Assembly (NCBI GenBank): GCA_039621445.1
Contig: CP154954.1
Coordinates: 47,347,847 to 47,411,846 of the forward strand
DNA from: Euglena gracilis
Taxonomy: Eukaryota
DNA length: 64,000 bases
Reading direction: 5' to 3'
This document shows, piece by piece, positions 2,421 through 64,000 of this stretch (positions are counted from its first letter, which is position 1; each line of letters opens with the position of its first letter). The position numbers and the translations under genes are program-made. The notes beneath the pieces are model-generated. The model had not been told where the DNA came from. It did not search any database and saw only the letters and a program-made list of their open reading frames with translations.

Positions 2421-2449
2421 ATTTTAAGGAGGAGAAATTTTCCTTCAAA

Positions 2450-7374: not shown

Positions 7375-7462
7375 GGAGGCGACGCAAGCAAGGAGGCGAG
7401 GCAAGGAGCGAGGAGACGAAGCAAGGAGCGAGGAGACGAGGCAAGGAGCGAGGAGACGAGGA
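7375..7462 (+). repeat. 20-bp tandem repeat (GAGGCAAGGAGCGAGGAGAC-like, about 4 copies) in the region downstream of pol
   Basis: Directly visible tandem units. Confidence 0.8.
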
Positions 7463-12477: not shown

Positions 12478-12578
12478 GACATCGCCTGAGAGGCCAACAC
12501 CTCCGAGTCGAACTGCACCAACGCAAAGCACTTCTGGCCGTTGTTGACCAGGCGCAGGTCCTTGAAGCCCAGGAACGG
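12478..12578 (-). CDS. RRM gene exon 7
   Basis: PFLGFKDLRLVNNGQKCFALVQFDSEVLASQAMS is beta2, RNP1 and helix 2 of RRM2. The following intron starts GCCCAG. Further tiny exons (candidates at about 12313-12319, 11837-11851 and below 11360) are unresolved. Confidence 0.85.
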
Positions 12579-12784
12579 GGGCGGGGGCTGCCGCGGGAGG
12601 GCGGGCCCCAGCGAGGGCGCGGAGGCTCGGACTCACTCACTCCCCAGCCGGGAGCAACGGGGGGGGGTTGGAACAAAGGTGCGAACATGGCCTCTGTTCA
12701 GGGGACCCCTTCCCGAGCAGGGGACGACGGTTTGAGTCAACAGGTACCCCCAAGCCCAATGAACACGAAAGTTACTCTCCAGTG

Positions 12785-12790
12785 TCTGCC

Positions 12791-12859
<69 letters not shown>

Positions 12860-12860
12860 G
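12785..12860. repeat. (CTGT)n microsatellite
   Basis: Direct observation. Confidence 0.95.
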
Positions 12861-13064
12861 CCGGACGGGGATGCATGGGTTGTGTGGGCAATAAAAGGCG
12901 ACAAACTAGATGGTCTGGGCACCTCCGATCCTTGGGCAAGAGGATTGATTAGACATGGGGGGGGGGGGCATTTCTGCACATGAAAGGGGAGAAAAGCTGA
13001 AAAGAACTCAAAAAAATCCGAGTCCAACGCTGAACTGGATGAGCAAAGCTGGGGGAAAAACTGA

Positions 13065-13078
13065 GGAAAAGATGTCCT
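13065..13078 (-). CDS. RRM gene micro-exon 6 (QDIFS)
   Basis: Follows an 86-nt GT-AG intron (GTACGT...TTTTTTTAG) and supplies the missing 'xIFx' before PFLGF. The 3' boundary is unresolved. Confidence 0.65.
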
Positions 13079-13164
13079 CTAAAAAAAAACCCACCTCAGA
13101 CCAGCTGAAAGAGAATAACGGTATGGAGGTGGTTGGCAACCACCGGTCGAGGAGGCGTACGTAC

Positions 13165-13251
13165 GAAGCTCCTCCTCTGTGACATTTGCAGGCAGGCCTG
13201 CCACATAAAGAGTGTCGCACGGTTGGGCCACAGCAGGGGAAGAGGTGGGCT
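13165..13251 (-). CDS. RRM gene exon 5
   Basis: PTSSPAVAQPCDTLYVAGLPANVTEEEL is RNP2 of RRM2, followed by a GTACGT donor. Confidence 0.88.
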
Positions 13252-14059
13252 ACTGTCGGCTGAGCTCAACAAGAAGTTGTTGCCACCTGGGACGACAACA
13301 TGCATGCGCCCGTGCATTCGCACGCACGCACACACACGCGCATGCACGCACGCACGCACGCACGTGCGCGCGCACACACAGACAAACGTGCACGTGTGCA
13401 CACATGCAGGCACGCATGCGCTGACACATGCAGCACGCACGCACACGCGCACGCACGCATACACGCATCAGCACGCACGCGCGAATGATTGCATGCAAAT
13501 GCGCACGTACATGCACACCTCTCGGGGGGGGGGGGGGTCCGGAAAACTCTTCCAGCCGGTCGAAAATAGCATGGCCCGAAATATTTTTTGCACAACTGCG
13601 CAAAAAGAATGTTCGAGGACAATCCTTGCTGAAGTGTTATGACCATAGGTTCACTGAGTGATCCCAGGGGGGGACTTTCCCCTGCCACCCACCCACGACC
13701 CCCTCCCAGAACTCCCAGAAGAGGGGAGGGGGGTCAACCACCGACCCTCCTCACCCACAACATCACTCCGCAAAGAAAAAATCCTTCAGTGCCGAAGGAG
13801 TTCAACAAAGAATCGGCACCCCCTGAAATGCGGGAAAGGCTGGTGGGAACGGAGGGTGGTCGGAGCCCCCAACCCACCACAGGATGGGGGTTGTCGACAC
13901 TCACCCCACTCACCACCCATAGGGTTTCGGAATCTGGTGGGAGGGTCGAAACCCCCCCACCAGACCTTCTCACACAGCCCTGGGGGCACCCCCCTGGGTG
14001 GGTCGAGGGACCCCACTTCCCAGTCGGTCTTTCAAAAATCCCTGACACTTACGCGCATG

Positions 14060-14190
<131 letters not shown>

Positions 14191-14636
14191 ATCATGTGGA
14201 CGTCAGGGATGCATTTAGTGTGTTCGCAAAAGCCGTAGTGAATACAAAATTTTATTCTGGGGAAAGCAGGAGAAAACCAAAAAAAATTGTGGAAATGGGT
14301 GAACACAATACAATTTTGGTGAACGCTGTTGAATGGGGGTAAATACAAAAATTTTCTTAAATTTTGAAGATACTAAAAAAAAAAAATGTTTTACACATTT
14401 GAACACAATGTTTCATTCGGTGAACACAGGTGAACAACAATTTTTAGGTGAACATGGGTGAACACACTCACATTTTTTTTCTTGGTGAACACACGAGAAC
14501 AAAAAATGGTGACTAAAGGAATGTATAATACACACACCGCACACCACCTGCACCACACCAACCTAAAATGCGGCAAAGCTGGACTTGGGGACAACGCCCA
14601 TGTACTGCATAAACGTCCTCCAGCGTTCAGCCGGGA

Positions 14637-14707
14637 GGCCCAAGCCGCCCTGCTGCTGGAAGTTCTGGAACGCCACCAGTGCCTGGTACAGGTCCTGCGG
14701 AGCGTAC
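14637..14707 (-). CDS. RRM gene exon 4 (linker)
   Basis: YAPQDLYQALVAFQNFQQQGGLG with GC3-rich codons. Both flanking intron stems give in-frame joins. Confidence 0.75.
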
Positions 14708-14861
14708 ACCCGCAGGCACGGTCACGATGCGTCGACAAGCTCAAAAAAAGCATCAAATTGTTGGCCACAAACCTCGGTCGTTCAAAAAAAATTAATCTTT
14801 GCTCAAACTGGACAATACGATGCAATTGCTGAAAGACTCTGCAATACTGGTGAGGTTGGTG

Positions 14862-15339
14862 CAGGGATGGATGGGAAGCCTTGAGGGGGGGGGTCGGACC
14901 CCCCCCTCCTACCTCGAAACTGAGGGGGATCCGAAAATTTTTCAATTTCATGGGCGGGCAAAGGGCCGGAAATCGGGTCGAAATCGGTCAAAAATCCCTG
15001 ATTTTTCTTTGAAAATCGATCCAAAAATGCTCATTTTTTGAAATTTTTTGAACATTTTTCGGCGCTGTGCGCTGGAGAATGAGCAAAAACACCCCTTTTG
15101 CTGACTTTTGGATATATTGCCCATTTTTTGATGTGTTGGTGTTTTCCCCCCAGAAGAATCCCATCCATCGGGGGTCCCATCCACCCCCCCCCTGGGGGTA
15201 AGGTGGGGGGGTTCAGACCCCCCCCCTAGATGTTGGGAGGAGGGGCCCGGACCCCCCATCCCCTTGACAGGTGCCAAAAATAGCAGAAAATTTTCCCTAC
15301 CATCTACCTCAATACCGAAGGGCTTCCCATCCATCCCTG
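14862..15339. mobile_element. hAT-type MITE
   Basis: 19-bp perfect TIR CAGGGATGGATGGGAAGCC and 8-bp TSD GGTTGGTG on both sides. Confidence 0.9.
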
Positions 15340-17379
15340 GGTTGGTGTGTGGTCAGATGTGGGCGTTGTGAATTTCACTAAGCTACCCGAGAGATAAGGG
15401 CCCCCTTCGGTTGCATGAAAGAAATTCCAACAGGAAATACCAAAAAAACTTTGGGGCTTCAAACCCCCCAATATTGTGTTTTCTGGAATTTCTTGAAAAA
15501 TAGGCAAAAATACGCGGGAAAAACATTGCTTTTTGGACAAAAGCTGAAAGGAAAAAGCTCCCTTTCCCGTTCCCCGCAGCCAAATTTCTCTATTTTGTTG
15601 TTTTAATTTTTCGTTGGTTGCCTCCTGGGGGGGTGCAAGGTAAACCCCCAAACACAAGACTCTGGTGTCTTAAATTGGGGATTCTGAAAACAGGCTTGGC
15701 ATTCGGTGCCGGTCAGAAAATTCGAAAGGGTGTCTTGTTGGGGGGGGGGGGCATTAAATGAGTGCCCTTTTGGACAAGGTCTGCTGGGATCATTTTTGGT
15801 ATTCAATCAACAAATTCTTTCCTCGTAAATCCCCAGTGACAGAGGCTGGAGCAGGTATTATTTTTTTAAGGAACCTTAAAAAACCTTTAAAAAAAAAACT
15901 TCAAAAAAGCTTAAAAATTTTTGGACCAACCTTAGAAAACCTGAAGAAAAACCTTAAAAAATTGGTGCTGGAAAATTTTTCAAATCTTTTGATCAAAAAA
16001 GGAGTTGCAAATCTCGGCAAAACAAGTTAAATCCAGGGGGGGGGGAATGAATTCTGGCATCACTGGAACATTGTGCGTCTACCTAAAACTCAAAAAAAAA
16101 TGGGTTTGATTTTCAACCTGGACCGACGTGGTTCGATGTCCAGATGGCTCTTTGACCACCCATGACAAGTAGACGCCTTAAAAATTCTTAAAAATTTGAA
16201 AATGCCTTAAAAAACCTTAAAAAAATAGGAAACGCCTTTAGAAACCATAAAAAAATTTTGAAATTTTTTGCTTTAAAATTTTCAAATTTTTTAATTTGAA
16301 GTAAATTCAAATTAAAAAAAATTAAAATTAAATGAATAATAATGCCTGGGCTGGAGCTTACTGGGTTGCAGGTGTGGTTTGTTGAAAGGCAAAATGGGCA
16401 TTCACATCTCAAGAATTTCCTGGTCTTTCAGCACCACCTCTTAAAAAAATGCTGGCTGCTTGGAAGCATGCAAAAAAAATGACCGTCTTCCACAGCAATC
16501 ACAACCGGAAGCAAAAAGTTTCTTGCTGCTGGTTATTGGGAAAGAAATCCTGATCCTGGCCATAGATTTTCACGGCAATTTCCCCCAACTGTAAATGCTC
16601 AAGGATTATTCAACCATTCCTGAAGCAATCTGCCTGAAAATATTTGGTGGACTCGGTTGCAAGGAGGACACAGTTTGGTGGCTGCAGTTAAACCCCATCA
16701 ATGCTTCCCCTGGGAGCAGGCAAGCAAGGTGCAAAAAAATACAGCTGTTTATTTCTGCCTGTCAGCCACCCGCATCGAAAATAACAAGAAAGCAAACGGT
16801 GGGAAAAGAAAACCAATACCTGCAGGCTGACCAAACCCCCTCATTTATAACAATGAGGGGGTCATTACAAATGGGGGTTGAGAGCATGAGGTCGTCATAC
16901 TCCTTCAGAAGACAAAAAAAAATCATTTTCTTGACCAAAACGGTCAACTACAGTCAAAACTGGTCAGTATGCCATCAAAAGGTCCCACATGACCGAAATG
17001 AACCAAAATGGCCCCCCAAAATGATCTTAATTGCCCCAGAATGACAAAAGATGCGAAAGACCATACACTTGCTCTTGCAGGTTCAAATTGGCCCAAAATT
17101 GCCCAAATCTGTAATAAAAAAAAATGGTGTCCCAAAAATGTATAAACTGAATGCAAGAGGACCTTCTTTTTTCAGTCTCTGCATTTTTGCCTTTTTTGGC
17201 AGGTGGTCAATATGTTCTCAAACTGGTGAAAGTTTCCTCAATGAACTATCAATGGGTGGTCATTATCCAAGGGGGCCGTTCCAACCAATGGACAATGTTA
17301 ACACAGTGCGAATATGACAGAGATGCAGGATTCCTTGCCACTCAACTGCATTCTCCCCCAAATGTGGCTGTGCCTGAGA

Positions 17380-40344: not shown

Positions 40345-41793
40345 GTTTTGTGCCAGAAACAGGGCGCCGGTGGGTCGAAAAACGCTCATTTTCGGCTCGA
40401 AAACAGTTTTTCTGGGTCCGAGAGGCCCAAAAACATTGTTTTGGTCAAAAAAAATTCGATTTTTTCGCCTTTTTCGACCCGGTTTTGACCCAAAGTCAAT
40501 GGGTCGGCGGCCCAAAACGGGGCGCTGGCAGGTCGAAAAACGCTCGTTTTCGGCTCAAAACAGTTTTTCTGGGTCCGGGAGGCCAAAAAACATCGTTTCG
40601 GGCAAAAAAAAAATTTCGATTTTTTTCGACTTTTTCGACCCGGTTTTGACCCAAAGTTAATGGGTCGGCGGCCCAAAACGGGGCGCTGGCGGGTCGAAAA
40701 ACGCTCGTTTTCGGCTCAAAACAGTTTTTCTGGGTCTGGGAGGCCAAAAAACATCGTTTCGGGCAAAAAAAAAATTTCGATTTTTTTCGACTTTTTCGAC
40801 CCGGTTTTGACCCAAAGTTAATGGGTCGGCGGCCCAAAACGGGGCGCTGGCGGGTCGAAAAACGCTCGTTTTCGGCTCAAAACAGTTTTTCTGGGTCCGG
40901 GAGGCCAAAAAACATCGTTTCGGGCAAAAAAAATTTTTCGACTTTTTTCGACTTTTTTGACCCGGTTTTGACCCAAAGTCAATGGGTCGGCGGCCCAAAA
41001 CGGGGCGCTGGTGGGTCGAAAAACGCTCGTTTTCGGCTCAAAACAGTTTTTCTGGGTCCGGGAGGCCAAAAAACATCGTTTCGGGCAAAAAAAAAATTTC
41101 GATTTTTTTCGACTTTTTCGACCCGGTTTTGACCCAAAGTTAATGGGTCGGCGGCCCAAAACGGGGCGCTGGCGGGTCGAAAAACGCTCGTTTTCGGCTC
41201 AAAACAGTTTTTCTGGGTCCGGGAGGCCCAAAAAACATCGTTTCGGGCAAAAAAAAATTTTCGATTTTTTTCGACTTTTTTCGACCCGGTTTTGACCCGG
41301 TTTTGACCCAAAGTCAATGGGTCGGCGGCCCAAAACGGGGCGCTGGCGGGTCGAAAAACGCTCGTTTTCGGCTCAAAACAGTTTTTCTGGGTCCGGGAGG
41401 CCCAAAAAACATCGTTTCGGGCAAAAAAAAATTTTCGATTTTTTTCGACTTTTTTCGACCCGGTTTTGACCCGGTTTTGACCCAAAGTTAATGGGTCGGC
41501 GGCCCAAAACGGGGCGCAGGCGGGTCGAAAACGCTCGTTTTCGGCACAAAAACAGTTTTTCCGGGTTTGGGAGGCCAAAAAACATCGTTTCGGGCAAAAA
41601 AAATTTTTTTGATTTTTTTCGACTTTTTCGACCCGGTTTTGACCCAAAGTCAATGGGTCGGCGGTCCAAAACGGGGCGCTGGTGGGTCGAAAAACGCTCG
41701 TTTTCGGCTCAAAAACAGGTTTTCCGGGTCCGGGAGGCCAAAAAACATCGTTTCGGGCAAAAAAATTTTTTTTGATGTTTTTTCGACTTTTTT
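40345..41793. repeat. 161-bp tandem satellite, about 8-9 copies (some variants of about 172 bp)
   Basis: Repeating ORFs at exact 161-bp offsets (40676, 40837, 40998, 41159). Confidence 0.95.
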
Positions 41794-44700
41794 GGCCGAA
41801 AACGGCCAAGTCGAACAGTGGAAAAAGTGTACAAAATGGCCAAAAATGGCCCAAATTGGCCGAAAAACGCCCGTATCTCGGGCTACGCGGGGAGTTGTGG
41901 GGAAACCATAATCCCAGTACATAGAGCGTCCCAGGGGCTTCAATTTAGGTCTCTGGACATTTCCTTTGATTTTGCATCATTTTCGAGAAATTTTGAAAAC
42001 ATCGACTTTTTGACCCCCCACCCCCCGAAAACGGCTAAGTCGAACAGTGGGAAAAGTGTACAAAACGGCCATCTGGGCCAAAAACGGCCGTATCTCAGGC
42101 TAGGCGGGGAGTTGAGGGGAAATCAAAATACCAGTAGATGGGGCGTTCCAAGGGCTTCAAATTAGGTCTCCGGACATTTCCTTTGATTTGGCTTCATTTT
42201 GGAGATATTTTGAAAATTGACATTTTTTGGCCGAAATGGCAGGGTCCAAAGGGGGGGGGGCTTATCCAGGGGGGCGGGTAAATCCTACACAGGGGGGTCG
42301 AGGGGGGGGTTTCGCCGGTGGTAAGCTTCGCTCTTACCCATAAAGGGATAAGAGCTCAGCGACCCCCCCCCTATTTGTCCCCCCCCCCCTAATTGGCCAG
42401 AGCCCAGGTGGCCAATTAGGGGGGGGGTTACTCATTTCAAGGGAAAATGCCTTTGTTCAGGTGTTTTTCGGGGGTTCGCGACTATGAAGGACGGGGCCCA
42501 GGTGGCCAATTAGGGGGGGGGGGGTTAGGGTAACCCCCCCCTAATTGCCCCCCCCCCTAATTGGCCAGAAGGAGGGTCCGGGCCGCCCGGAGGGCGGCCA
42601 AATAGGGGGGGGGGGGTGTTGGTAACCTCTACAACCTCTGAACGCCCTTTTCCACCCTTCGCCGCTTGAAGACTTACCTTCGGCCCACAGGGTATTATTC
42701 TAAGGCATTTTGGATTCCAGAAAATCTTTTTTTGACAAATGACGTGACCCCCCCTATTTGTCACCCCCCCCTAATGGTCGCCCCCCCTTTGGGGGCGACA
42801 ATTAGGGGGGGGGGGTTACTCGTGGACCCATGGACATGTAGGGTAAATTGAGTAACCCCCCCCCTAATTGTCACCCCCCCCCTAATAGTCGCCAGGGGGT
42901 CAAAACGCTCCCAGGGGGGTGCCATAGAGGGGGGGGTCACGTTGTCTCCATCACATTCACAAAACAATTTCATATATACGTGGACTGAGGCCCAAAACAC
43001 ACACTGTGTTTTGTGGACCGAGTCCACGAAACACAGTGTGTGTCCAGTCCACGAAAACACACCCTGTGTTTCTGGGACTGGCAGTCCACTAAACACAGGG
43101 GGGGGGTCGGCACGCCGTGGCGAGCCGTCCGGCTCGCTTCTTTTTAAGACCCCCGGGGGGGAGGGGGGGGGGCACCCACCCAGGGGCGCGGGACCCCCCC
43201 AAAATCGGGCTCGTTAAAGGCAATTTTCAAAAACTTTCGGCGCTTCGCGCCGAAAAGGTATACCCAGCGCCTCCGGCGCGGGACCCCCCCCCCCCCCGGG
43301 CGTCCGGCCCGGACCCACCCACCCCCCCCCCCTCCCCCGGGGGGGGGGGTCAGGTGACTTAAAAAGAAGCCTGCTAGGGGGGGGGGTTTGGCGTGGCGAG
43401 GGGGCCCGGATGGGGGGGGAGGGGTGCGCGGGGGTTTTCCAAGAAAATTTCCTTTGGCGCGGCTGACATGGCGTGGCGAGGGGGTCTGAAAAGGGGGGGG
43501 AGGGGGGGTAAAATGGCGTGGCGAGGGGGTCGGTGAGGGGGGGGGGGGGGGGGGGGTGTGCCGACCCCCAGGGTGTGTTTTTTGTGGACTGGACACACAC
43601 ACACACACGGATGTGAACACCCGTGCGAGAGAGTTGAAATAGCCCCGGAAGGCAGGTTTGCCTCGAAACTGAACGTCGTGCCACACTGTGCCCGGCGCTG
43701 TTGCTCAGCTTGTCTGACAAGGGCAACCTCATCAAACAAATAAACGGGGTAATTGACCCAACCAGCCCACGCTGAAGAAACAACCATCCAGGTCCTCATA
43801 CTGAGCGTTTAGATGGGTACACACCTAATGGAAATCCAACAGGCGTGCAACAGCTGTACGCTCAGCCTTTGCGGTTCCTGTTGGTTTTGCTTCCAACGCG
43901 GTGGCCAACAGCGGGCATGTTGTTGTTTGGTGGGAAAATCACCGCACATGGCAGGGCGAGGGCATTCCTCCTGGGAGCTGCCCCAGGAGGAACATAATGA
44001 GGGGGGTACATAAGGGGGGGGGTTGGTACGCCGTGGCGAGGGGGTCCGAATAGGGGGGGGGTAAATGGCGTGGCGAGGGGCACTGGTGTAGAAGTAAATT
44101 TTTCTCGGGGGGGGGGGGGGCGAGATTCCAGGTTGACAACAAGCAACAATCGCGGGAGGTTGGCATTCCACAATCACTGGCCGAGTGCGAAAGTGGACGT
44201 GCGGTAAGTGTTTTTCAGAATGAACTCATTCAACAAAGCGTCAAGGTCAAGAGCAAATAGTTCCTCTTTATAGACATTACAGAGTGCAAGGTGATTGTGT
44301 TCAGCATGAAAAACCTTGTCGTCAATTTTCTTTTGCAGAATTTGAGACACCGGGGATGGGAGGGGTCAGGGGGTGAAGGCTCACGCGGCGTCACATATGC
44401 GTCCCGCCAATGATCAAGTGAAAATTGGTTAACAATCTGAACAACCAAAAATTTTGGGGGGTTCAAACATGCCATGACGGGGGTGGGGGGAACCATTGAA
44501 AAACCAAATAGTTGTGATTTCCCATGCTGAATGAGGCGTGCTTGGCCAATTTGGGAACGCAGGTAAGTTTTCAGGCGGCGCAGGGTTGAGAAGGAACGTT
44601 CAGCGGTGGCAGATGAAACTGGAATGGTTAGACACAACCGCACCAGTGCAACTATCAGTGGTAGTATGGCACGGATGGCCGGCATTAGGGTAATTTGTGT

Positions 44701-46461
44701 CATCACGAATCTCTCTCAAGGCACCTCTCTCTTAGATACTAAATGAAAGATCGAAAGCCCGGAAAAGTCCACGGACATACGGAAAATGGTATTTTTTTCC
44801 AAAACTCACCAACCCATAAAACCGGCATGAGGGAATCAAAACGGAGGATGTTGACAGCAATATAGCAATCCCTGCTCCCTGGAGCCTCTCGAAGGAAAGT
44901 AACCACATCCGCAAAAGTCAGCAGCTTCTGGTCTTTCTCCTTGCTGATGTGTTGCATGTGGACCGACGCTTCAAGTTGCCCCTCACTCGGCATGTTTACG
45001 TTTTACACATCAGGGAACATATTAATGGCAGGCAATTTAATGGTTATTAGTTTGTTTGTTTGTTTTTGCGATTTGCAGCCGGGGGGTGAAAAATTATCAA
45101 AACCAAATGGCCAACTTCGGGGGAAGGTTACGGAACTTGATTTTCAAAGTCAGAGTTGTTGCAATGCATGAAAGCAGAGGTCCAATTGCATCATCTGCTG
45201 CTCAAACTCCAAGGAGCTTGGCTGGTCCAAATCATCCCCATAAAAAGCCAACAACCTTTGGAACTTCTCTTTGTCCCCAGAAATCAAGAAACCTTCAATG
45301 TCCAACACGTGATTTGTCTGCAAGCCGTTTTTTCTTTGGAGTGGTATGAACCTAAAACTTTGGGCGGGGGAGGAAACGTTTGTTTTAGAAAAAAAACAGC
45401 TTGCGGGATTTACCGTCCAGTTTGAAATTCCCCTTGTCCCCTTGTCCAGTCCAGTTCAGCGTCCCAATCCCCCCCCCCCGTGCCTTCCTAACCAAAAATC
45501 CGGAATTCGGGAATTTTTTTTAAAAAAACAGCTTGATCACAACATCAGAGTCCAAGAAACGTTCGGACAAATTCTTCAAAATTGCCTCAATATATGAGAC
45601 GTACTTCCCAAAAAAATGTTCCTTCACAGAAACCACCGCACCTGAGTTTTCCTTGTGCGTGGGATGGCAGGGTCGTCAACACCACTTCTGCATGCCGCGG
45701 CTTCTGCAGCCTCCCAAAATGGTTCAAAACGGTTGATATCCTTTAGTGCTTGCAAAGACACCTTCACAGCCAAAATGATCTCCCTTGCAGCCAAAGCCGG
45801 CAGTCAAAAAAAAAACAAAAAAAACAAAAAAACGGTTTTTTTTGTTGTTTTTTTGTGTTTTTTTTTTAAAAAAACGCCAGCGGGGGTATGGTGGAAAAAA
45901 TTTTCATTTTTTTTTTTGGGCAGTTCCCAACATGATCTTGGAATTGTTGCATTTTTTTCTGTCACTTTTATAGCTATTTTCTCATGTCTGGTCAATACAA
46001 AACCGAGGAAAGGGGGGGTTGCATGTGTGTGGTGTTTTTTTTGAGTTTTTCCGTTGCCGGCGACTTTTTTTTTTGGCGCTTGATTTGGCCGGTTTTTTTT
46101 TAAAAAAAAACCGTTTTTTTTTGCCGTTTTTTTCTTCAAAAAAAACACGTTTTTTGTTTTTTTTAAAAAAACAAAAAAACGCTAGCTCTGCTTGCAGCTG
46201 AAAAATGCAGTTGCACCCCTTGCAATGCAGTGCTGGCACGGTCCACAGTTTGCAAGATCAGCCTGTAGCAGGATTTCTGTGATGTGAAACACCTGACCTC
46301 AACACCAAAATTCATCATCGGGAGGCAAAAAAAAATCCTGATTTCAACAGCTCAACAGAAAAGAAGGTGTCAAATTGCAAGAGGCGAGTGACAAAGCCTC
46401 GAGCAGTGAATACAACTTCCCCAGAATCACCCTCGTCAACTTCGTTGAAAAATTCTATATA

Positions 46462-51665: not shown

Positions 51666-52834
51666 TAATCAGGGTTCACTTTTCAGAAAATATTTGGCTT
51701 TTGAAAAATAGAACCCTGATGCAGACGGTCTCCCCAAACCTAGGCCTGGTTCATTTCTCAATCCTGGAGGCAGCGATGTCAGGCAGGATGAATATGTCCC
51801 TTCTACAGGGGGGGGGGGTTGAATGGTTCGACACGGGGGGGGGGGGGGGAAAAAAATGGTTGACGGGAGGGGGGGGGCAAGCAAAAACGGTTGACGGGAG
51901 GGGGGGGGGAAGCAAAAATGGTTGACAAGAAACTTCTCGGGGTGCTGGCTGGGGGGGGGGTGTTGTTTCGAGAGTTTTGAAAAAAGTTTCAGTGGAAATT
52001 GTTTGAAAAAAAATACAGTATTTTTTCAGCCTTCAAAGGATTTTTAATACTTTTATCATTTTCAAAAGTTAGAAAACGCATATTTTCCTGAGTTCGGGAA
52101 ACCTCTTAGTGGGGTACATTTCTGAACTGATGACCTTGCTGGACCACAAGTACCCTTTCAAAAGGTCTTGGCTGGTGATGGACAACTTGCGAGCACATCA
52201 ACGAGACACGTTGGACTTGTTTCTGGCACACCGTGGCCCAGCACACCGTAGGGCGGGGATGGCAGGGTAACGGACCTGAATATTCATGAAATTTCAAGCT
52301 TTTTGCGGAAGATTTCAGACCCTATTTTTCAGCATTTTTCAGTAAGGATTCAGAAACGGAGATTCCAACAGGATAAAACTGTTTGAATCTCCGTAGACGG
52401 AGACATCCGCCGGTGTGATGGCAAAGACCACATGACCTTCGCACCTTGGATAGCAGGCACTCCCCTCCAGAAGCCACTCCGGGAGCCGCGTTTTTTCGAG
52501 TGTGCAATGCGAAACTGGCCCGACACGCGAAAGTGGAAAAACATACTTTTTGGGGGGTGGACCGCACGCAATCTGAACAGTGGGGGTGCCCCAGTCCAAA
52601 GACTATTTTTTTTAGAAAAAAAAGGACCTCCCAACCTAACCCACCAACCCTCAATTCAACGATAGTCATTCGAGCTGGGGGGGGGTTGCAATCAGCGTGG
52701 GCCTCGCCTTTTATAGCATTTAAAAACACCCAAAACATTTTCGCAGACCTAGTTGTGCGATGTGTGCATGCGGATCTTGATCTATATTTTGATTTTTGCG
52801 AATGCGCGTTTTGTGAAAAACGAGAAATGCGTGA

Positions 52835-55065: not shown

Positions 55066-56534
55066 TAGGATTAGCGTCGGTTAAGGACATGGGGCGAGTA
55101 CTACCATCACTTTTAGGTTTTGCGTACTAAGGGTGTATGGAAAATGAAAGGAAAGGTTTCAGATTTTATCTTTCTTTCAGAGCGTTTTCCACGAACTGCC
55201 CCACCCTAAAAGTGGGAAACCACTACATCTTTTTGCCCCCCTACTCGCCCATGCTGTACCCACTACTGCTTTTTTTTTCATTTGCCATTGCAGGAGAAGG
55301 AAGCGGTGGTGGGGCGAACCGAGTCCACCGACCAATGGCACTGCCTACTGGATTTTTCAGTCTGAGGATTTGTAGAGATGGGCTGGGCCCATGGTCCATG
55401 GTGGAGTAATAAAGGTAAGGTAGGCGGGAAGCCCGAGGTATTCTTTTCCTAACGAGATTTTTTAAGCCCCCCCCCCTTGTCTGTTTGGGGTGTTTGGCAG
55501 AGGGAAAAGGAGCAGTGAGAATTCAGAATTGTCTGTGTGATTTGCGTGTTATTTGGAGTTATTTGAATGCAATTTGAAGGTAATTTGAACGTAATCTGAC
55601 CAGGAGACGTCGGATGGTACAATTCCAAAACAGGTAAAATGTAATATGTATCGGTTCGGAATTGTGAGCTGATTACGGATCTGATACTGCGAAATGTTGA
55701 TACTACAGTTTCCGTGGGTGCGCATCATCGGAAAGGTCATTAGGAATCAGCAAAACAGCCCAGCGCGACGTACCAGCCACGTGGCAATCAATAATGTTTT
55801 TCTTTCAGACATATATACAATAATGCTGGGTATCAAACAGGAGGTGGAGGAATACCAATGGGATGGTGAGAGCATGGTGTGTGTGTTTTTTGTTCATCTG
55901 TTTCTGATTATCATTTTTGCCTGTAGGTGCAAGTTGCCCATCAAACAGCAGATTTGCCTGGTTTAGAGGTAGAGCCCCTTTACCAACCAAAGTCAGAGCC
56001 CCACAGAACAGAGTCTCGCAGCACGCCGAAGGGACCCGCGGCGGTGCGGTGGACGCCACCGACCCCTCCCCTCCAGCCCAAGAAACCCCGGCAGCCTCTG
56101 CCCCTGTTGCAGCCCAAGCCCCAGGCCCAGCCCCTGCTGCAGCCCAAGCCCCAGGCCCAGCCCCTGCTGCAGCCCAAGCCCCAGGCCCAGCCACTGCCAC
56201 AGCCCAAGCCCAAGCCCCAGCCACAGCCCAAGCCCCAGGACCAGCCCCTGTCACAGCCCAAGCCTCAGGCCCAGCCACAGCCCCAGGCCCAGCCACAACC
56301 ACAACCTCAGCCACAGCCACAACCTCAGCCACAGCCACAACCTCAGCCACAAGTACATCCTCAGCCACAACCTCAGCCACAGCCACAACCTCAGCCACAA
56401 GTACATCCTCAGCCACAACCTCAGCCATATCCTCAGCCACAACCTCAGCCACAACCTCCTCCTGTCCCACTTATCTCAGTTTTTAAACTTCGTGAGTAAT
56501 GCTTGTAAACTTGCAAAGTAAACTTTGTTTGAAT

Positions 56535-56828
56535 GTAATGCTCAGCATTACGGGGTGTAATGCTCAGCATTACGGGGTGTAATGCTCAGCATTACGGGGT
56601 GTAATGCTCAGCATTACGGGGTGTAATGCTCAGCATTACGGGGTGTAATGCTCAGCATTACGGGGTGTAATGCTCAGCATTACGGGGTGTAATGCTCAGC
56701 ATTACGGGGTGTAATGCTCAGCATTACGGGGTGTAATGCTCAGCATTACGGGGTGTAATGCTCAGAATTACGGGGTGTAATGCTCAGCATTACGGGGTGT
56801 AATGCTCAGCATTACGGGGTGTAATGCT
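56535..56828. repeat. 22-bp tandem array of a palindromic unit, 13 copies plus a partial copy
   Basis: Unit GTAATGCT-C-AGCATTAC-GGGGT, with one substitution in copy 11. Confidence 0.97.
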
Positions 56829-57279
56829 GATATCTGATTTCAAACCATAAACACTGAGATACCAGAGACCGCGAGCCAGGTGGGTGAGTGGGTGGCGGTT
56901 ACAATGTGGATGCTGTGGGAAGGTGTGTGTATTTTTTGATTAATTTTACTCTGTATTTTTTGTTACAGTTACCACACCCGCTGCTGTTGTCCCACCTCGT
57001 GTTCCTCCGCCTGTCCCAGCTGCCGCTGTCCCTTCTGGTGTGCATTTTTTTTTTGCAAAAATAAAAAAAATTTTTTCTGCAGGAAGTTCTGATGATGGCA
57101 CACGGGTATGCCCACGCCAACCCCGTCGTAGCCCCAGACTATTGGCCAAGAGACAACGACAATTGACAATTGACAATTGATCATCCAGATGACATTATCT
57201 ATCCCAGATGACATTATCTATCTTTTTCAATCATCCTTTTTTTGGTTTGTTTGCAAGATCAAGACAAAAAAAAATAAGT

Positions 57280-57602
57280 TGAAATTTTTTTTGACCAAAA
57301 GTGTTTTTTATGGCAAAACGGGACATTTTCTCGAAAAGAAATTTTTTTTGCCCCCCCCCCGAAAAAAAAATACAAGTCGAAAAAAATTTTTTGAAAAATT
57401 TTTTTGACCAAAAGTGTTTTTTATGGCAAAGCGGGACATTTTCTCGAAAAAAATTTTTTGCCCCCCCCCCCCGAAAAAAAATACAAGTCGAAAAAAAATT
57501 TTTTGAAAATTTTTTTTGACCAAAAGTGTTTTTTATGGCAAAGCGGGACATTTTCTCGAAAAAAAAATTTTTTGCCCCCCCCCCGAAAATTTTTTTTGAC
57601 AA
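57280..57602. repeat. tandem repeat of about 113 bp, about 3 copies, at the edge of the virus-like segment
   Basis: TTTTGACCAAAAGTGTTTTTTATGGCAAA recurs at about 57290, 57403 and 57515. Confidence 0.85.
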
Positions 57603-57964
57603 AGCACCTGGGTGCCAGGAGCCAAATAATTTTTTTTTTCAAAAAAAAAGTCGTTACTACCGAGGACGGGAGGGAATTTTTTTTTGAAAAACCCTCACTC
57701 GTGGGGAGCAGCCAAAGCGTGCTCCCCCCTCACCTCGCTCACTGCCACCACGGCACGCTCTCTCTGACCCTCGGTGCTCCCTCGTTCGCTGCCTTCCTTC
57801 TTTTTTTGGCGCCCTGACCCCTTTGCCCTTTACGGCTCGCTCAGGCCACGGAGACGTCGGCCCCCTTCCTCCTCCTCGGGAGGGAGGAGGTCTACGCCGA
57901 CCTGTGGGAGCGCCACCGCCCCCACAAAAACTCCTACGCCCGGAACGAGGCCGGGGAGCGGGTG

Positions 57965-58144
57965 ATGGCCTCCCGCACGTTCGTGCGCCGGGGCATGGCC
58001 GACGCCGAGGAGTGGTGTTTCTTCTGCCTCTCCCAGCACCTGACCTGCCGGGACCACGAGGTGGTCGTCCGGGGCGGCCGGACGGGCCTCCGGGCCTACG
58101 TCGCCCGGGCCTGCCGCAACGGCTGGGACCCGGATTACGATTGA
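57965..58144 (+). CDS. small hypothetical protein (59 aa)
   Basis: ATG start and GC3-rich codon usage like the neighbouring viral ORFs. Confidence 0.45.
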   Translation: MASRTFVRRGMADAEEWCFFCLSQHLTCRDHEVVVRGGRTGLRAYVARACRNGWDPDYD

Positions 58145-58703
58145 CCTTTGTTTCCTGACCCGCCTTCATTCCGACGCACCGCCGCCGCCCGGGGCGGAAC
58201 GGGGCGCCCACGGCACGCACTACCATTGCCCCCGCCCCCCGGCCGAGTGGTCCCCTGTGGCGCCGTCTACGCGAGCGACCCGGGTTCGAACCCCGGTCGG
58301 GGACGGGGGTACTCCCAGACCGTCCCATTCCGGGTCGAAAAAAATAAACATAGGCTGTGCTCTGGATCCACCGTGAGGGGTCGTGACAGCCCCGTCTCTT
58401 GGACGGATGGTCCACGAATAATAACACCACCGCTCCCCCACACACGGTGTGTAACGTGCGCCGCGCGCCCCCTGCAGTTGGACGCCGAGTTCGACGACGA
58501 CGAGGACTACGACGCCGCCGTACGCGCCCCACCCCGCGCGCCGCGCGCACACCGCAACACGAACGGAGAATGGGTGTGTGTTCCCAAACGGATCATCAGC
58601 CGTCCACCCCGCACAGGGGGCAGCCTATCGTGGAACGGTCTGGGGGTTTTTTGTTTTTAATTTTTTTTGCCCGCAGGCTTTTCGTTCCCGTTTTCCTCCC
58701 GCG

Positions 58704-60680
58704 ATGCTCAATTTCCACGGCCTTGAGATACCCGCGGCGCAGCCGGCGGGGGACGACTGGTTCTGGACCGCCGACGACACCCAGCCGGCGACCCTGCCAC
58801 CGCCGCGACCGGCACCGGGGGCCCCGGCGCCGCGGAGCCCCGCGACCTGCCGGGTGGTGCTGCGCGGGGTGAAGCGGCAGCGCTGCGGGCCGCCGGCGCG
58901 CATCCCCACGGAGGTGTGGGTACACCGGGTGCTGGCGTTCTGCGACCTGACCACCCTCCTCGTCCTGAACCGGACGTCCGGACCGCTCCGGCGGGCGCTG
59001 AACGACCCGCGGACGGTGGTGCAGTGGCAGTCCACCGCCTGGTTCCTCAAGCCCCGCGCCTGCGGTTGTGAGCGCCACCTGTTCTACGTGGACGCGTGCG
59101 TCTACTTGGAGTTCACGAACGACTGCGTGGGGCTGACGGGCCATCGACAGGCGGAGGACGCCCTGCGGTGCGTGCGCCGCGCCCGGCGGGACGCGGCGGG
59201 GATGGGCTTCCACACGCTTGTGCACAACCGCCCCGGATGCTTCGCGCCCGGTGTGCTGGACGCCTACGCGGAGAACTGGGTGGTCCCCGCGCCGCGCATG
59301 CTGGGCCTGCCCGTGGAGGACGCGGTGGTGGACCGCCTGCGGGCCGATCCGGCCCCGTTCTGGGGTTACTACCACGCGGTCCCGGAGGACGACGACGGGG
59401 ACGATGACATCTGGGTGGAGGACCCCGCCGACGAGTCGGAGGCGGCCCGGCGGGAGCGCTGGAACGCGGCGCAGGAGCGGCGCTGGCGCCGCCAACCCCC
59501 GCCGTCGGCGCTGTTCGTCGGCCCCACCACCGACCTGCACGCCGCCTACCTGCTGGACTGCGCCCGGCACGACCGCGACCCGCACAACCCCGGCGAGGAC
59601 GCCGACGACCTGCGGGGCTTCCACGCGGCGCGCTGGGCGCGGCGGCGCCTGCTGGAGACGGCGGTGGGGGTGCAGACCTACCCGCACTACGGCTGCCTCC
59701 GACAGAGCGAGCTGCCGGGCGACGTGCCGCACCGCCGGGGCACCGACTACATCGAGCGGCAGTACCTGCCGGTGCCGCGCCTCGCCACGCTGCCCGGTCT
59801 GTCGGAGTACGCCCTGATGGATTTCACCGGCGAGGTGTACTTCCACCCCGCGCGGTACGACAACGAGGCCGGGGACTTTGTCCCCTGGGCGCTGTCGACG
59901 CTGGCGGTGCTGCACGGCCTCTACGTGCACGCGTGGTTCGACGGGGTGCACTACCTGATGGAGGCGGTGATCGCCTTCGGTCAACACGTGGCCCGGGAGA
60001 CCGAGACGGCACTGCCCGGGCCGCGGATGGCCCAGCGGTGGGCGTACCTCCAGCGGGTGCTGTTCCTCGGGGAGGCGGTGCACCCGTACAGCGGCCTGGG
60101 ACCCGACGGGCAGATGTCCGCGGCAACGGGCGGCGACGCCGCCACCGGTGGACCGGGACAGCGCGACCGCGCCGCGCAGCAGGTGCGCCTGGCGATGCGG
60201 CTGCTGGCCGACCCGGACTTCGTCGCCGAGAACCGCTGGATGGCCACGCGGTCGGTGGCCACGGTGCCCACCGAGCAGTACCTGACGCCGCTGCTGCCGG
60301 ACACGGCGGGGCTGCTGCACCGCCCGTTCGCGCCCCGCCGCGACGAGACGGCGCTGCTGGAGGAGGTGGCCCACGCGCTGCGCGCGGTGGAGTACGTGGT
60401 GCGCTTCGCGGAGGCCTTCGGCCCCCTGGCGGACGCGGAGACGTCCGCGCGGTGGCACCGCAGTCTGTCGCTCTTCCTCGGCTGGGGCACCTCCCTGCGG
60501 ATCGCCGCGCCCAGCCTGCGGCGGACGGCGACCTGGCGCCCCTCTGCGGTGGGACACTTGGACGAGAATCTGGCGACCGTACCCGCGACCCAGCCCCCCC
60601 GGGTGTGCATCGCGAACAACCACCGCTACCGCCGCTACCTGAACTTCCTGACCCGGCGGTCGGCCTACGGGCGCCGGTGA
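58704..60680 (+). CDS. F-box-like protein (658 aa)
   Basis: 'RIPTEVWVHRVLAFCDLTTLLVLNRTSGPLRRALND' fits the F-box consensus. Strong GC3 bias in this frame; ATG at 58704. Confidence 0.7.
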   Translation: MLNFHGLEIPAAQPAGDDWFWTADDTQPATLPPPRPAPGAPAPRSPATCRVVLRGVKRQRCGPPARIPTEVWVHRVLAFCDLTTLLVLNRTSGPLRRALNDPRTVVQWQSTAWFLKPRACGCERHLFYVDACVYLEFTNDCVGLTGHRQAEDALRCVRRARRDAAGMGFHTLVHNRPGCFAPGVLDAYAENWVVPAPRMLGLPVEDAVVDRLRADPAPFWGYYHAVPEDDDGDDDIWVEDPADESEAARRERWNAAQERRWRRQPPPSALFVGPTTDLHAAYLLDCARHDRDPHNPGEDADDLRGFHAARWARRRLLETAVGVQTYPHYGCLRQSELPGDVPHRRGTDYIERQYLPVPRLATLPGLSEYALMDFTGEVYFHPARYDNEAGDFVPWALSTLAVLHGLYVHAWFDGVHYLMEAVIAFGQHVARETETALPGPRMAQRWAYLQRVLFLGEAVHPYSGLGPDGQMSAATGGDAATGGPGQRDRAAQQVRLAMRLLADPDFVAENRWMATRSVATVPTEQYLTPLLPDTAGLLHRPFAPRRDETALLEEVAHALRAVEYVVRFAEAFGPLADAETSARWHRSLSLFLGWGTSLRIAAPSLRRTATWRPSAVGHLDENLATVPATQPPRVCIANNHRYRRYLNFLTRRSAYGRR

Positions 60681-60815
60681 GGCGCACAGCGGGGCACGCA
60701 ACACAAAGCGAAGTCATTCATTGGAACGGGTTCGGTGACGGGCCGGGGCGGCCGACGGCTCTTCCCCGGCGAGGGTGCGGCAGTCAGTTCGTATGCACAG
60801 AGTCAGTCGGTTGGG

Positions 60816-62006
60816 TCAGTCCTCCGCGGGGGATGCGGGGGCGGCGGGCGGGGACGGCGGGGCGGCAGAGTCGGCGGAGGGTGGGGGGGCGGACGGCGCG
60901 GCGGGGGGGGACTGGTTAGGATCAGAAGCAGCGCTGCGTCGGGGACGTCCGGTGCTCCGTCGGGCCTTCTTCGGTGGGGGTGCGGCCGTGTCGGCTGGGT
61001 CCTCCGCTGCGGGCGGCGGCGCGTTGTCCTCCTCGGAGGAGGACACCACCACCACCGGGGCGGTGTGGGGCGCCACCGTCCCGTCCGTCTCCTCCGTCTT
61101 GATCGCCGCTGCATCGTCGTCATCCGCATTGTGGGTGAACACCCGCCGCCGGCGGCGCTGGCGCTGCGGGCGGGCCGACTCCGCCGGTTCTTCCGCCGGG
61201 ACGGCAACGCCTGACGCCGTGACTCCCCCGACGTCCGCGTCTCCGTCCGCCGGGCTCGCCTCCTCCACCGTTGTCCAATCGTGGTCCACCCCCTCCGGTG
61301 GTGTGGGTGTCGCGTTGCAGGGAATTTCTTCCGCGGGGATGCGGGCGGGGGAATTCATGAACGGGTTGGGAATCGGCTGCGGAGAGGGATCGGAGAAGGC
61401 GAAGAGGTTCGGGACGGTGTTGGAGGGGGGTCGCTCCCCCACCACGGCGCGGTGCAGTCGCTTGGCGGCCAGCACGCCCACCAGCTGCATCCAGGGAGGG
61501 GTGGTCCCGATCCACCGGGTGGACTGCGCCACCAGATGCTGCAGCGCGGGGCTGCGGACGACGTCCTCGGATGCCAGGCCGGCCAGCCGGCCGGCCAGGT
61601 GCAGCACCACCGCGGACACGTCCTCCCCGAACTCCCGCACGCACAGACCACCCCCGCCACTGACCCACGGTCCGCCACTGCCACCGTCACCGCCCGCCGC
61701 TGTGGTTGTGATCTGCTGCAACTTGCGCTTCAACAGGCCGGGGAGGACCCGCCAGGCGGAGTTGCCGGTGGGGGGGGGGGGTGGGGTGCCGGCGTTGGCC
61801 CGGCGGCGGTGGAGCCGCCAGGCGGTGACCCCCGCGGGGCTCAGACGGGGGGCGGGCGGGCCGGGCGGGGGAAGCAGAGGTGGTCCTGCTGGGGCAGCCG
61901 GAGGGTGGTTTGGTTGGGGGGTCGGCGGAACATCAGGGACGGGTGGCGGGAATGAATGCGCCGCGCGTCCCAGCGGACGCCGCGACTGGGATTTGAAAAG
62001 CTCCAT
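60816..62006 (-). CDS. hypothetical Pro-rich/acidic protein (396 aa) with a central helical domain and NLS-like PPKKARR
   Basis: ATG at 62006 (MELFKSQ...). The frame has coding-like composition and is convergent with the F-box gene. Confidence 0.55.
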   Translation of the reverse strand: MELFKSQSRRPLGRAAHSFPPPVPDVPPTPQPNHPPAAPAGPPLLPPPGPPAPRLSPAGVTAWRLHRRRANAGTPPPPPTGNSAWRVLPGLLKRKLQQITTTAAGGDGGSGGPWVSGGGGLCVREFGEDVSAVVLHLAGRLAGLASEDVVRSPALQHLVAQSTRWIGTTPPWMQLVGVLAAKRLHRAVVGERPPSNTVPNLFAFSDPSPQPIPNPFMNSPARIPAEEIPCNATPTPPEGVDHDWTTVEEASPADGDADVGGVTASGVAVPAEEPAESARPQRQRRRRRVFTHNADDDDAAAIKTEETDGTVAPHTAPVVVVSSSEEDNAPPPAAEDPADTAAPPPKKARRSTGRPRRSAASDPNQSPPAAPSAPPPSADSAAPPSPPAAPASPAED

Positions 62007-62079
62007 GGTAGTCGGGAAGAGTTCAGAGGGCTGGGGGATGCGGGCACGGGCCAGCGAGTGGTGGGGGGTGGGGGGTGCA

Positions 62080-62991
62080 TCATGGGGTGTGATCGGGGTC
62101 GGACCATGGTACGGCGGGGAAGGATCCAACACCGACGGTGCGCTGCCGTTGTTGCGGCGGATGAGTTGGGAGAGGAATCCCGGGGACGCAACGTGGGTCA
62201 TCGGAAGGATCCAACAGCGGTGGCGGTGGTCGGAATACGTGTTCTTGGATCCATTCGACGATGCACTCCGCCACCACCCCCGCGGACGTGTCGGAGTTGG
62301 TGTGGACCGCATTGGGTATGGGGTTCTGGACGGGCATGTGGGTGGGCGGGTGCTGCCGCGGCTGGCTGTGTCCCACGGCGGGGTGGGGGGTGTGGACGCT
62401 GGTGTGTGCGCTGCTGTGGTGGCACGCGGGCAGCGCGCCCTCCAGGATGGGTCGGAGTGTGGGCCAACAGCCCTTGGCGAACGCGTGACTGCGGTGGGCC
62501 AAACCGGCGAATACCACCCCGGATACGGAGCAGGTTTCCAAGGATTGGCCACCGGACCGACATTCCCGCATCCCCAGTTGCCGCAGGATCTTGGGAAAGG
62601 CGGGGTCGTCCCAGGGGATGTGCCGCCAGAGGGCGTCGGCTGCGGGCCGGCTCCGTTCGATGGCCGCCTCCACCCGGTCGATCCACCCGCACCACCGCTC
62701 GGCGGGGACGTCCGCGGGCCGGGCCGGGTAGCCCCGCCGGGCGCGGGCCAGTAGGCATTTCCAGTACCAAAATTCCGCGTCCGTCCACAGGCGCCCGCCC
62801 GATGGCCGGGGATGCCGCTGCCGATGCTCCGCCTCGAGCCGCTGGCGGTGTTCGGCCTGTTCGACCAGCGCGGCGCGCTTGCGCTTGGCGTACCACCGGG
62901 CGCTGGCGACCTTCTTGCGGAGTTTGCGGTGGCGGGTCCACTCCTCCGGGGTGACGGCGGCCCGGCGCACGCGCGGACATCGTTGGCGCAT
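62080..62991 (-). CDS. hypothetical protein (303 aa) with a bZIP-like basic region and coiled coil
   Basis: 'RHRKLRKKVASARWYAKRKRAALVEQAEHRQRLEAE'. The ATG directly abuts the ATPase stop (TAGATG). Confidence 0.6.
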   Translation of the reverse strand: MRQRCPRVRRAAVTPEEWTRHRKLRKKVASARWYAKRKRAALVEQAEHRQRLEAEHRQRHPRPSGGRLWTDAEFWYWKCLLARARRGYPARPADVPAERWCGWIDRVEAAIERSRPAADALWRHIPWDDPAFPKILRQLGMRECRSGGQSLETCSVSGVVFAGLAHRSHAFAKGCWPTLRPILEGALPACHHSSAHTSVHTPHPAVGHSQPRQHPPTHMPVQNPIPNAVHTNSDTSAGVVAECIVEWIQEHVFRPPPPLLDPSDDPRCVPGIPLPTHPPQQRQRTVGVGSFPAVPWSDPDHTP

Positions 62992-64000
62992 CTACTGCCC
63001 GAACAGGTGCTGCAGGGAGCGGGAGAGGGTGGATTCGGCCAGGGGTACCCGGTGGTACTTCACCAGATTTTGGGGGTGGGTGAGGGAACTCAGGGGGTGG
63101 TGCGCCGCCCGGGTGAGCTGGGACCAGGACTCCGGGGTGAGTTCCGTGCGGGTGGGTGTCTTCGGGTGCGTGAGCCCCACGGACGGATCCGCCCCCCGGA
63201 TGTTGGCCACCCGCTCCGGCTCCACCGCCTTCAGGTGCTGGTGATCCGCGGGGGCGGGCAGACGGCGCCGCTCCATCTCGCGCTTCATGCGGTCGAGGAA
63301 GACGCAGAGGACCTCCGTCTCCTCGGGGAACCATTCGGCCACGTTCCAGTCGAGGCACCCCAGGGAGTTGTTGATGCAGATGCCGTTGAAGTTCTTGTCG
63401 ACCTCCCCGGTGCGGGGGTTGACGACGGAGCAGGTGTGCTGGTTGTAGATCCCCTTGAATTCCCGGAAGCGCTCGTAGTGTCCGGTCATGGAGATGAGCT
63501 CCCGGTAGATGCTTTCCAGGAGTTTTTCGTTGGTCGTTGGTCACGCGGGGTGTGGGTGACGTTCTGCCGGAGGAACGGGGACAGGGTGTGCCCCGAGGTC
63601 AGCGAGTGGTAGCACAGGCAGACGCTGAGCCGCTTGTGGCGGGCGACGGACAGCAGCCCCACGAAGTGGCGGTCGGTCCGGAAGGCCTCGTTCATCCCCA
63701 CGTCGTCCAGCCAGAGGAAGGTCCGGGGGATGGCGTGGGGGGCGACGGTGGCGTCCGTCCGCTGCAGGAACGCCGCGGAGAGGTCGGGGTGTACTCCGAG
63801 GTGATGAACACCTTGTCCCGGAACGGCTGGAGCCACGCGTACGAGTTCGCGGCCTCGAACAGGTACGTGGGCAGGACCAGGAAGTACTGGTCGAACACGT
63901 TGTTGCGGAGCAGCCACATGAGCAGCGTCATGACCCGGAAGGACTTGCCGCCACCCTTCTGTCCCAGGCACAACAGGATGGGCGCCTGGTACGGGTCGCG
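62992..64000 (-). pseudogene. A32/FtsK-like viral DNA packaging ATPase, 5'-truncated by the window, two frame disruptions
   Basis: Walker A 'LLCLGQKGGGKS', Walker B 'FLWLDD', 'ARHKRLSVCLCYHS' and 'SPFLRQNVTH'. A 1-nt loss in a C run at about 63788, and a 7-bp duplication (GACCAAC x2) with a deletion at about 63530-63550. Confidence 0.82.

Follow-up and report, generated by a model that had tools for sequence, protein, structure and literature searches.

A GC-rich, probably virus-derived element with a twice-broken A32-like packaging ATPase in DNA of a probable euglenid

Introduction

What is the GC-rich block that fills the end of this 64,000-nucleotide stretch of DNA (hereafter the window), and how did it come to lie there? 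An earlier note, made from the letters of the window, proposed an endogenous Polinton-like or virophage-type virus that had recently integrated into a probable euglenid genome. Here we describe the block, referred to below as the element, together with its genes, their relatives and the DNA beside it. The reading that we consider likely is that positions ~57,695-64,000 hold the left part of a small double-stranded DNA (dsDNA) virus of the Polinton-like size class, integrated as a defective copy in a probable euglenid host.

Results

A GC-rich, intron-free block ends the window

The visible portion of the element is the window's final 6.3 kb. In 1-kb bins, GC lies at 0.40-0.62 over positions 1-57000, is 0.46 at 57001-58000, and reaches 0.66-0.74 in all six bins of 58001-64000. 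At a resolution of 100 nt, the rise falls at ~57650-57700, with values going from 0.39 through 0.57 to 0.67, which puts the step at ~57.69 kb. Total GC is 0.708 for 57830-64000 versus 0.493 for 1-57600, a composition clearly unlike that of the host, as in Polinton-like and virophage elements. CpG has an observed/expected ratio of 1.03 in the element, compared with 0.67 in host DNA and 0.56 for a retrotransposon at the window's other end. The features of the element, and the repeat that borders it, are as follows (ORF, open reading frame; GC3, GC at third codon positions; aa, amino acids).

57695..64000, no strand: GC-rich (71%) element, apparently virus-derived, marked by the GC step and CpG; continues past the window end
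57818..58144, plus strand: ORF1', the C-terminal 108 codons of a partial gene; GC3 0.92
58644..58672, plus strand: AT-rich island, a candidate promoter, 32 nt upstream of the ORF2 start
58704..60680, plus strand: ORF2, an intact 658-aa gene of unassigned function, conserved in relatives; GC3 0.94
60816..62006, minus strand: ORF3, putative, ~396 codons, proline-rich, acidic and of low complexity; the start chosen is the ATG at 62006
62080..62991, minus strand: ORF4, putative, 303 codons, its ATG directly after the ATPase stop; GC3 0.80
62992..64000, minus strand: predicted A32-like DNA-packaging ATPase, running off the window with its N-terminal ~78 residues beyond base 64000
57260..57589, no strand: AT-rich tandem repeat with a 112-bp unit, 2.9 copies, adjoining the element on its left and found only here in the window

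Since DNA this GC-rich leaves all six frames open by chance, the real frames were chosen through GC by codon position. The plot singled out one frame per stretch, and the ORFs obtained in this way are continuous and intron-free. GC3 is 0.94 in ORF2, 0.91-0.99 in the ATPase pieces and 0.80-0.81 in ORF3 and ORF4; in Pol of the host retrotransposon it is 0.47. Between 57.8 and 64 kb, a scan for AT-rich islands found only two, of 24-29 nt each, and no insertions resembling miniature inverted-repeat transposable elements (MITEs). The earlier note had pointed to high GC, abutting ORFs without introns, a contrast with the flank and a lack of MITEs. All of this was borne out, by the GC step, by GC3 values of 0.80-0.99, by an ATPase stop that abuts the next ATG, and by the island scan. 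Elsewhere in the 64-kb window we found neither sequence similar to the element nor a further fragment of it, nor a second occurrence of the repeat at its left edge; only one end of the element lies inside the window.

A packaging ATPase split over three frames

The ATPase gene is spread over three reading frames by two breaks, one near 63785-63790 and one near 63535-63548. Aligned to a full-length relative (P0008), its pieces correspond to residues 79-148, 149-228 and 234-382. Walker A (GQKGGGKS) lies at 63941-63964 and Walker B (FLWLDD) at 63702-63719, so that the two Walker motifs required by the Pfam family Pox_A32 (PF04665) are both in place; the conserved downstream sensor motifs were also located. 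With X placed at the breaks to join the pieces, the protein is 70-76% identical to members of its family. The first break sits in a G/C run, and homopolymer runs are places where long-read errors are common. At the second break, five family residues have no counterpart. Four runs were aligned to the window, three of DNA (X1, X6 and X18) and one of RNA (X21). At the first break, all covering contigs from X1, X6 and X18 differ from the window by one letter in length; at the second, the same is true of all covering contigs from X1 and X6, X18 having no coverage there. Only this copy, or its assembly, thus has the frame breaks. The note's A32-type packaging ATPase stands, on the Walker motifs and on the viral kin described next, but the splitting of the gene over three frames had been missed.

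The ATPase belongs with viral A32-like proteins from small contigs

A search of 1.84 billion proteins with the middle ATPase piece gave 16 matches; the two best of these, both full-length (395 and 431 aa), are 84-86% identical to it. Half of these 16 have weak Pox_A32 matches in Pfam, two of them above the gathering score. A profile of the window's family (A2), compared with a profile of seven Pox_A32-type relatives, gave a probability of 100% and an E value of 5.7e-70; the protein Atlas, queried with P0008, returned Pox_A32 virus clusters exclusively (score 0.97). A weak trace of mad8 was given by PADLOC for P0008 (E 4.8e-4), and the only Pfam trace of the piece with Walker A was AAA_22 (E 0.017). 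Searches of PDB sequences with the ATPase pieces and profile A2 gave no meaningful match, and profile A2 found no relatives in prokaryote genome contigs; nor did the family have any in the phage collection. Pattern scans of IMG/VR with the ATPase piece, with profile A2 and with profiles A1 (that of ORF2, below) and A3 likewise returned no relatives.

P0008 has 93 relatives at 54-100% identity. They are metagenome protein clusters, none informatively named; one is filed under a metagenome-assembled genome (MAG) of Planctomycetes, presumably by misbinning. The longest contigs of 23 of the 93 fall at 23.3-28.2 kb and none exceeds 28.2 kb, in a database that carries contigs of 400-780 kb for other proteins. 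This size class would fit Polinton-like viruses or virophages, not giant viruses. A phylogeny of the ATPase, one of the checks proposed in the earlier note, was built from 101 rows (quick IQ-TREE, LG+G4), with eight distant relatives as outgroup and with five rows left out, namely the broken P0010 and four fragments shorter than 200 aa. In this tree the window's ATPase pairs with P0086 as its sister (SH-aLRT 99), and it falls within a starred clade of 24 rows in the family of 93. It groups with viral A32-like ATPases and not with cellular enzymes, and on this grouping we regard the stretch as virus-derived.

ORF2 is conserved and has diverged mostly at synonymous sites

ORF2 has five full-length homologues of 647-683 aa (alignment A1), at 33-41% identity and E values from 7e-130 to 2.5e-78; one of them is located on a contig of 28,098 bp. 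In JGI metagenomes, profile A1 found a single contig, of 1,091 bp (L001). No match to ORF2 was found in Pfam, PDB or the protein Atlas. Compared with the commonest copies, 13 of the 16 listed differences in ORF2 are synonymous, where 27% would be expected (binomial 8e-6). This excess suggests divergence while the gene was functional, as in several integrations from a replicating lineage, and would fit less well with a single insertion followed by duplication and neutral decay. The share of G, A, R and P residues (GARP) is 0.40 in ORF2 versus 0.27-0.32 in its relatives, and one related DNA locus has 55% GC; the element's lineage lies at the GC-rich end of its family. An F-box reading of the ORF2 N-terminus was considered and kept as a lead only: one of six members matches, at E 0.079, and a PDB search with profile A1 and with the F-box-like stretch gave no meaningful match.

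The element is probably one of several diverged copies

Of the words sampled from 56000-64000, half or more are present in 18 runs, which come from 16 studies and carry two coded organism labels. Two further runs, one of them from leaf litter, have a 0.05 share of the words and do not enter the evidence. Mean word depth over the element's bins, a sum over words and not a copy number, is ~4000 in X1, ~690 in X6 and ~156 in X18. In the flank, a contig without differences from the window has a depth of 104 in X1, and the bin 56801-57067 has depths of ~833, 21.5 and 37 in X1, X6 and X18. In X1, 1105 pieces were aligned, and the element appears there as many short variant contigs; joints with sides shorter than 30 letters were left uninterpreted. 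Word depth, the many variant contigs and the runs of 16 studies indicate that the element is multi-copy. Over 8 kb, each run shows 69-87 substitution places between the window and the commonest sequence; in X1, the substitutions comprise 49 transitions and 33 transversions. From the RNA run X21, three reads were aligned out of 12.9 million records, and in this one run the element is essentially untranscribed.

The leftmost gene gives a further sign of the state of this copy. ORF1' is preceded by an in-frame stop at 57815-57817, and its sole ATG (57965) differs in every contig aligned there. Without a usable start in this copy, it is probably truncated.

As to age, excerpts of the work on Euglena gracilis report heavy cytosine methylation of its DNA (PMC12455990). 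If the present host is likewise heavily methylated, the undepleted CpG of the element (1.03) would mean that it has been resident too briefly for decay. The recent integration of the earlier note therefore survives in part. The youth of the copy is plausible, on CpG ratios of 1.03 versus 0.67 and on the 69-87 substitution places. The element is, however, not a single fresh integration but one defective copy of a multi-copy family, with its ATPase broken twice and its leftmost gene without a start.

The host and the junction

The best named relative of the retrotransposon Pol is eukprot:EG_transcript_113 (72% identity over 99% of the length), a style of label that also appears in papers on E. 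gracilis and that we take to be that of the E. gracilis transcriptome. The flank has 49% GC, which fits the ~51% given for E. gracilis in parts of PMC12455990. Together these two observations lend moderate support to the euglenid host proposed in the earlier note.

At the junction itself, the 112-bp repeat was followed in the same runs. Over 57068-57601, word depth is 2731 in X1, comparable with that of the element, 206 in X6 and ~2.7 in X18. X18, the run with the second organism label, holds the element at a depth of 100-460. Because X18 has the element but almost none of the repeat, the repeat does not belong to the fixed parts of the element.

Discussion

How firmly can the virus be identified?

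We propose the following history. The element would descend from a virus of the Bamfordvirae kind, with a capsid and a packaging ATPase; the capsid is the part we infer. In the free virus, the ATPase, of the A32-like FtsK/HerA type, would pump a genome of ~25-28 kb into a preformed capsid, a role suggested by its family. The 658-aa protein and the two unrecognised ORFs may be accessory or structural genes. This lineage would have entered the host genome many times. The copy in the window would be dead, with its ATPase frame-broken twice, its leftmost gene lacking a start and no transcription, and it would be young, retaining its foreign 71% GC, a GC3 near 0.95 and undepleted CpG. In this account we infer not only the capsid but also the integration enzyme, the total length, the copy number and the host species.

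Several observations weigh against this history. Neither a capsid protein nor a protease, a polymerase or primase-helicase, or an integrase was found among the ORFs of the visible 6.3 kb with Pfam and PHROGs, and no terminal inverted repeat (TIR) or target-site duplication (TSD) lies in the window portion, the far end being off the window. The A32 label of the ATPase, although strong, is a transitive one that comes through relatives, because the Pox_A32 model matches neither the window's fragments, at E<=1, nor any of 27 family members, none of which reaches the gathering threshold of 22.8 bits or even E<=1. No annotated viral genome anchors the family, because it was not found in IMG/VR. Frame composition is the sole basis on which ORF3 and ORF4 are called genes. 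Listed differences outside ORF2 mostly alter the residue (four of six in the ATPase tail, all three in ORF4, one of two in ORF3 and the single one in ORF1'), and all the ORF-by-ORF counts draw on 40 of the 111 difference rows. Depth does not convert into copies, and the window may itself come from the sample of X1. The host is probably a euglenid on the evidence of one label at 72% identity. Finally, among the contigs listed, none bridges the low-complexity junction at 57.2-57.8 kb. The assignment to the Polinton-like or virophage type made in the earlier note is thus plausible but unproven: the viral ATPase, the GC contrast and the size class of the kin speak for it, and the lack of a capsid, integrase or polymerase gene in the window portion against it.

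Could the element instead be a piece of a giant endogenous viral element (GEVE) of the Nucleocytoviricota, akin to those published for E. gracilis? A32 is a hallmark of giant viruses, most of the Atlas clusters closest to the ATPase carry the label Nucleocytoviricota, and eight GEVEs have been published for E. gracilis (Jivaji et al. 2025, PMC12455990). From the portions of that paper available, these share with the element what is probably the same or a related host, an endogenous and eroded state, a setting in heavily methylated DNA and, in some, an A32 ATPase. They are, however, Asfuvirales of 86-311 kb with 25-37% GC, against a host of ~51%, and are recognised by further giant-virus markers as well. 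The element has 71% GC (0.708), the ATPase is the sole such marker in its 6.3 kb, and none of the 93 related ATPase clusters lies on a contig above 28.2 kb, with 23 piling up at 23-28 kb. The published Euglena giant-virus elements clearly do not include this one, and we think it improbable that the element is a piece of another giant virus of that kind.

About as doubtful, if slightly less so, is that the element is not integrated at all but comes from a virus present free or as an episome, or from another organism of the culture, and was misassembled onto host DNA at low-complexity repeats. The junction does fall within AT-rich tandem repeats and homopolymer runs with no bridging contig listed, the leftmost ORF is cut, and element and flank differ in depth by a ratio that varies between runs. 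A contaminant or free virus would sit poorly, though, with the presence of the stretch in runs that come from 16 studies and carry two organism labels, and with essentially no transcription in X21. The private frame breaks and the 69-87 substitution places are what a decaying chromosomal copy is expected to show, and the short variant contigs, like the alternative joints, would be expected from many genomic copies. A non-viral origin, as a GC-rich island of cellular or domesticated host genes with a P-loop ATPase, could draw on the four of five ORFs that have no recognisable family and on the purifying selection on ORF2. We give it hardly any credence: the closest kin of the ATPase are metagenome proteins whose contigs reach 28 kb at most, Pox_A32 matches occur among its wider kin, the gene is broken and unexpressed in this copy, and the element's ORFs are intron-free whereas the flank shows GT-AG introns by eye.

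Comparison with known elements

An integrated copy of a small dsDNA virus, the reading we favor, can be set beside the endogenous Polinton-like viruses (PLVs) and virophage-like elements of protists, as presented in parts of two studies (PMC10120064, PMC12220804). The element resembles these in being an intron-free block with an A32-like ATPase. They too occur as many diverged copies per genome, and Ty3/gypsy elements lie nearby. In the cryptophyte PLVs described in excerpts of PMC12220804, GC deviates from that of the host by 14-28 points, and here the deviation is 22 points; the protist PLVs compared are GC-poorer than their hosts, whereas this element is GC-richer. Endogenous PLVs belong to a 15-40 kb class, for which the contigs of the kin (up to 28.2 kb) must stand in here, the element's own length being off the window. 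They carry a capsid gene, an integrase, a replication gene and TIRs, none of which was seen in the window portion. The string 'Euglen' is absent from the main text of the survey of Bellas et al. 2023 (PMC10120064).

A 2026 preprint by Bellas and Sommaruga, in the parts available (10.64898/2026.06.19.733378), describes PLV-sized groups, among them Zoravirus (VC102), VC134, VC218, Zephyrvirus and Alpenseevirus, with genomes of 20-30 kb and A32-like ATPases most like those of giant viruses. These groups come from freshwater metagenomes, several without a known host. Most of them are reported to occur in IMG/VR, where the window's ATPase family was not found. Compared by description only, the element may belong to or near these PLV-sized relatives of giant viruses.

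The ATPase can also be compared with the poxvirus A32 and FtsK-HerA ATPases of PF04665. Walker A, Walker B and a downstream RH...Q/H...R-x-N sensor region follow one another in the expected order. The window's family differs in falling below the Pfam threshold and in having an extra conserved C-terminal extension of ~150 residues.

Significance

We know of no virus isolated from any member of the euglenids. Passages of a 2021 review (PMC8061765) describe virus infection of euglenids as being without experimental verification. As for endogenous Euglena viruses, the literature we found, of which PMC12455990 was available in part, holds only low-GC remnants of giant viruses, and a literature search of limited scope found no Polinton-like elements of euglenids. 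The main value of the locus is probably twofold: a likely host for a widespread metagenomic virus group that viral catalogues and Pfam do not recognise, and a second lineage of euglenid viruses. That lineage, small, GC-rich, multi-copy and unrelated to the first, would widen the known virus-host range of the Discoba. The locus would also allow small integrated viruses and the remnants of giant viruses to be studied together in one heavily methylated genome.

More speculatively, the ATPase family (93 clusters on contigs up to 28.2 kb, not found in IMG/VR and below the Pfam threshold) may mark an undescribed group of small DNA viruses with euglenids among their natural hosts, one very GC-rich lineage of which colonised its host on a scale approaching that of Mavericks in Trichomonas. 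On this view, the copies might act against the asfarvirus-like giant viruses that left remains in the same host, in the manner of mavirus or other Polinton-like viruses. We put this forward as a tentative idea, doubtful at present. With summed word depth taken at face value, the visible 6.1 kb alone would make up ~0.2-1.7% of the letters of the three DNA runs.

Further features of the element and its flank

Apart from the ATPase and the conservation of ORF2, the element's genes are anonymous. Pfam, PHROGs, NCBIfam and PADLOC returned nothing significant for its four other ORFs, in agreement with the earlier note, which had seen three or four ORFs without a recognisable family. The sole match to ORF1' is a weak one, to phrog_32854 (E 0.0048). 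The frame signal of ORF3 spans 60960-61700, with a GC3 of 0.81. PDB sequence searches with ORF4 and ORF1' gave no meaningful match, and a domain common to these two ORFs was rejected as not significant (E 0.061). The AT-rich island at 58644..58672, which is one of the two in the element, has a motif that occurs once in the window.

Between ORF1' and ORF2, the frame 58148-58660 is weakly coding-like without an excess of GC3 and may be a further small broken gene. In the same spacer, at 58474-58476, other copies are shorter than the window by one letter. A tRNA-like stretch at 58276-58299, resembling a T-arm, was discarded, ARAGORN and Rfam finding no RNA gene there; the stretch contains a palindrome of 22 nt with TTCGAA at its centre, and the fold is no better than those of shuffled versions (z -0.88).

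The flank is rich in satellites and low-complexity repeats. About 870 bp left of the element, a 22-bp tandem repeat occupies 56534-56828 (13.4 copies, 99% match), and here the runs have a word depth several times that of the neighbouring sequence. On the plus strand, 55900-57170 looks by eye like a putative host gene; it would encode a protein rich in Pro, Ala and Thr, have GT-AG introns (e.g. ...acag|TTACC... and ...ctgcag|GAAG...) and stop near 57165, a little short of the repeats next to the element. Farther left, a satellite at 40357-41793 consists of ~8.8 copies of 161/174-bp units (93% match) and has G-run and A/T-run motifs, as do many other repeats of the window. A fragment of a hAT-family dimerisation domain at 44233-44706 on the minus strand (E 7e-8) is probably what is left of a decayed hAT transposase. 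ARAGORN called a 99-nt 'tRNA-Pyl' (anticodon cta) at 52554-52652 on the minus strand, which is probably spurious; Rfam had nothing there at gathering scores.

The window begins inside the retrotransposon used above for host assignment, a Ty3/gypsy chromovirus with reverse transcriptase, RNase H, integrase and chromodomain. No pair of long terminal repeats was found in 1-16000.

1-7029: Ty3/gypsy chromovirus
1457-2764: its upstream ORF
3400-7029: its Pol

The upstream ORF holds a C5 cytosine methylase (PF00145, E 3e-6) and a Dam-like N6-adenine methylase (PF05869, E 3e-11). Excerpts of published work report cytosine methylases in Gypsy elements of Klebsormidium and Dam-like ones in DIRS elements (PMC5890265); both types in a Gypsy family of a probable euglenid may be an undescribed combination. 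Among the 120 Pol relatives listed, ~23 have PF05869 and ~15 have PF00145, with several of these domains fused into Pol.

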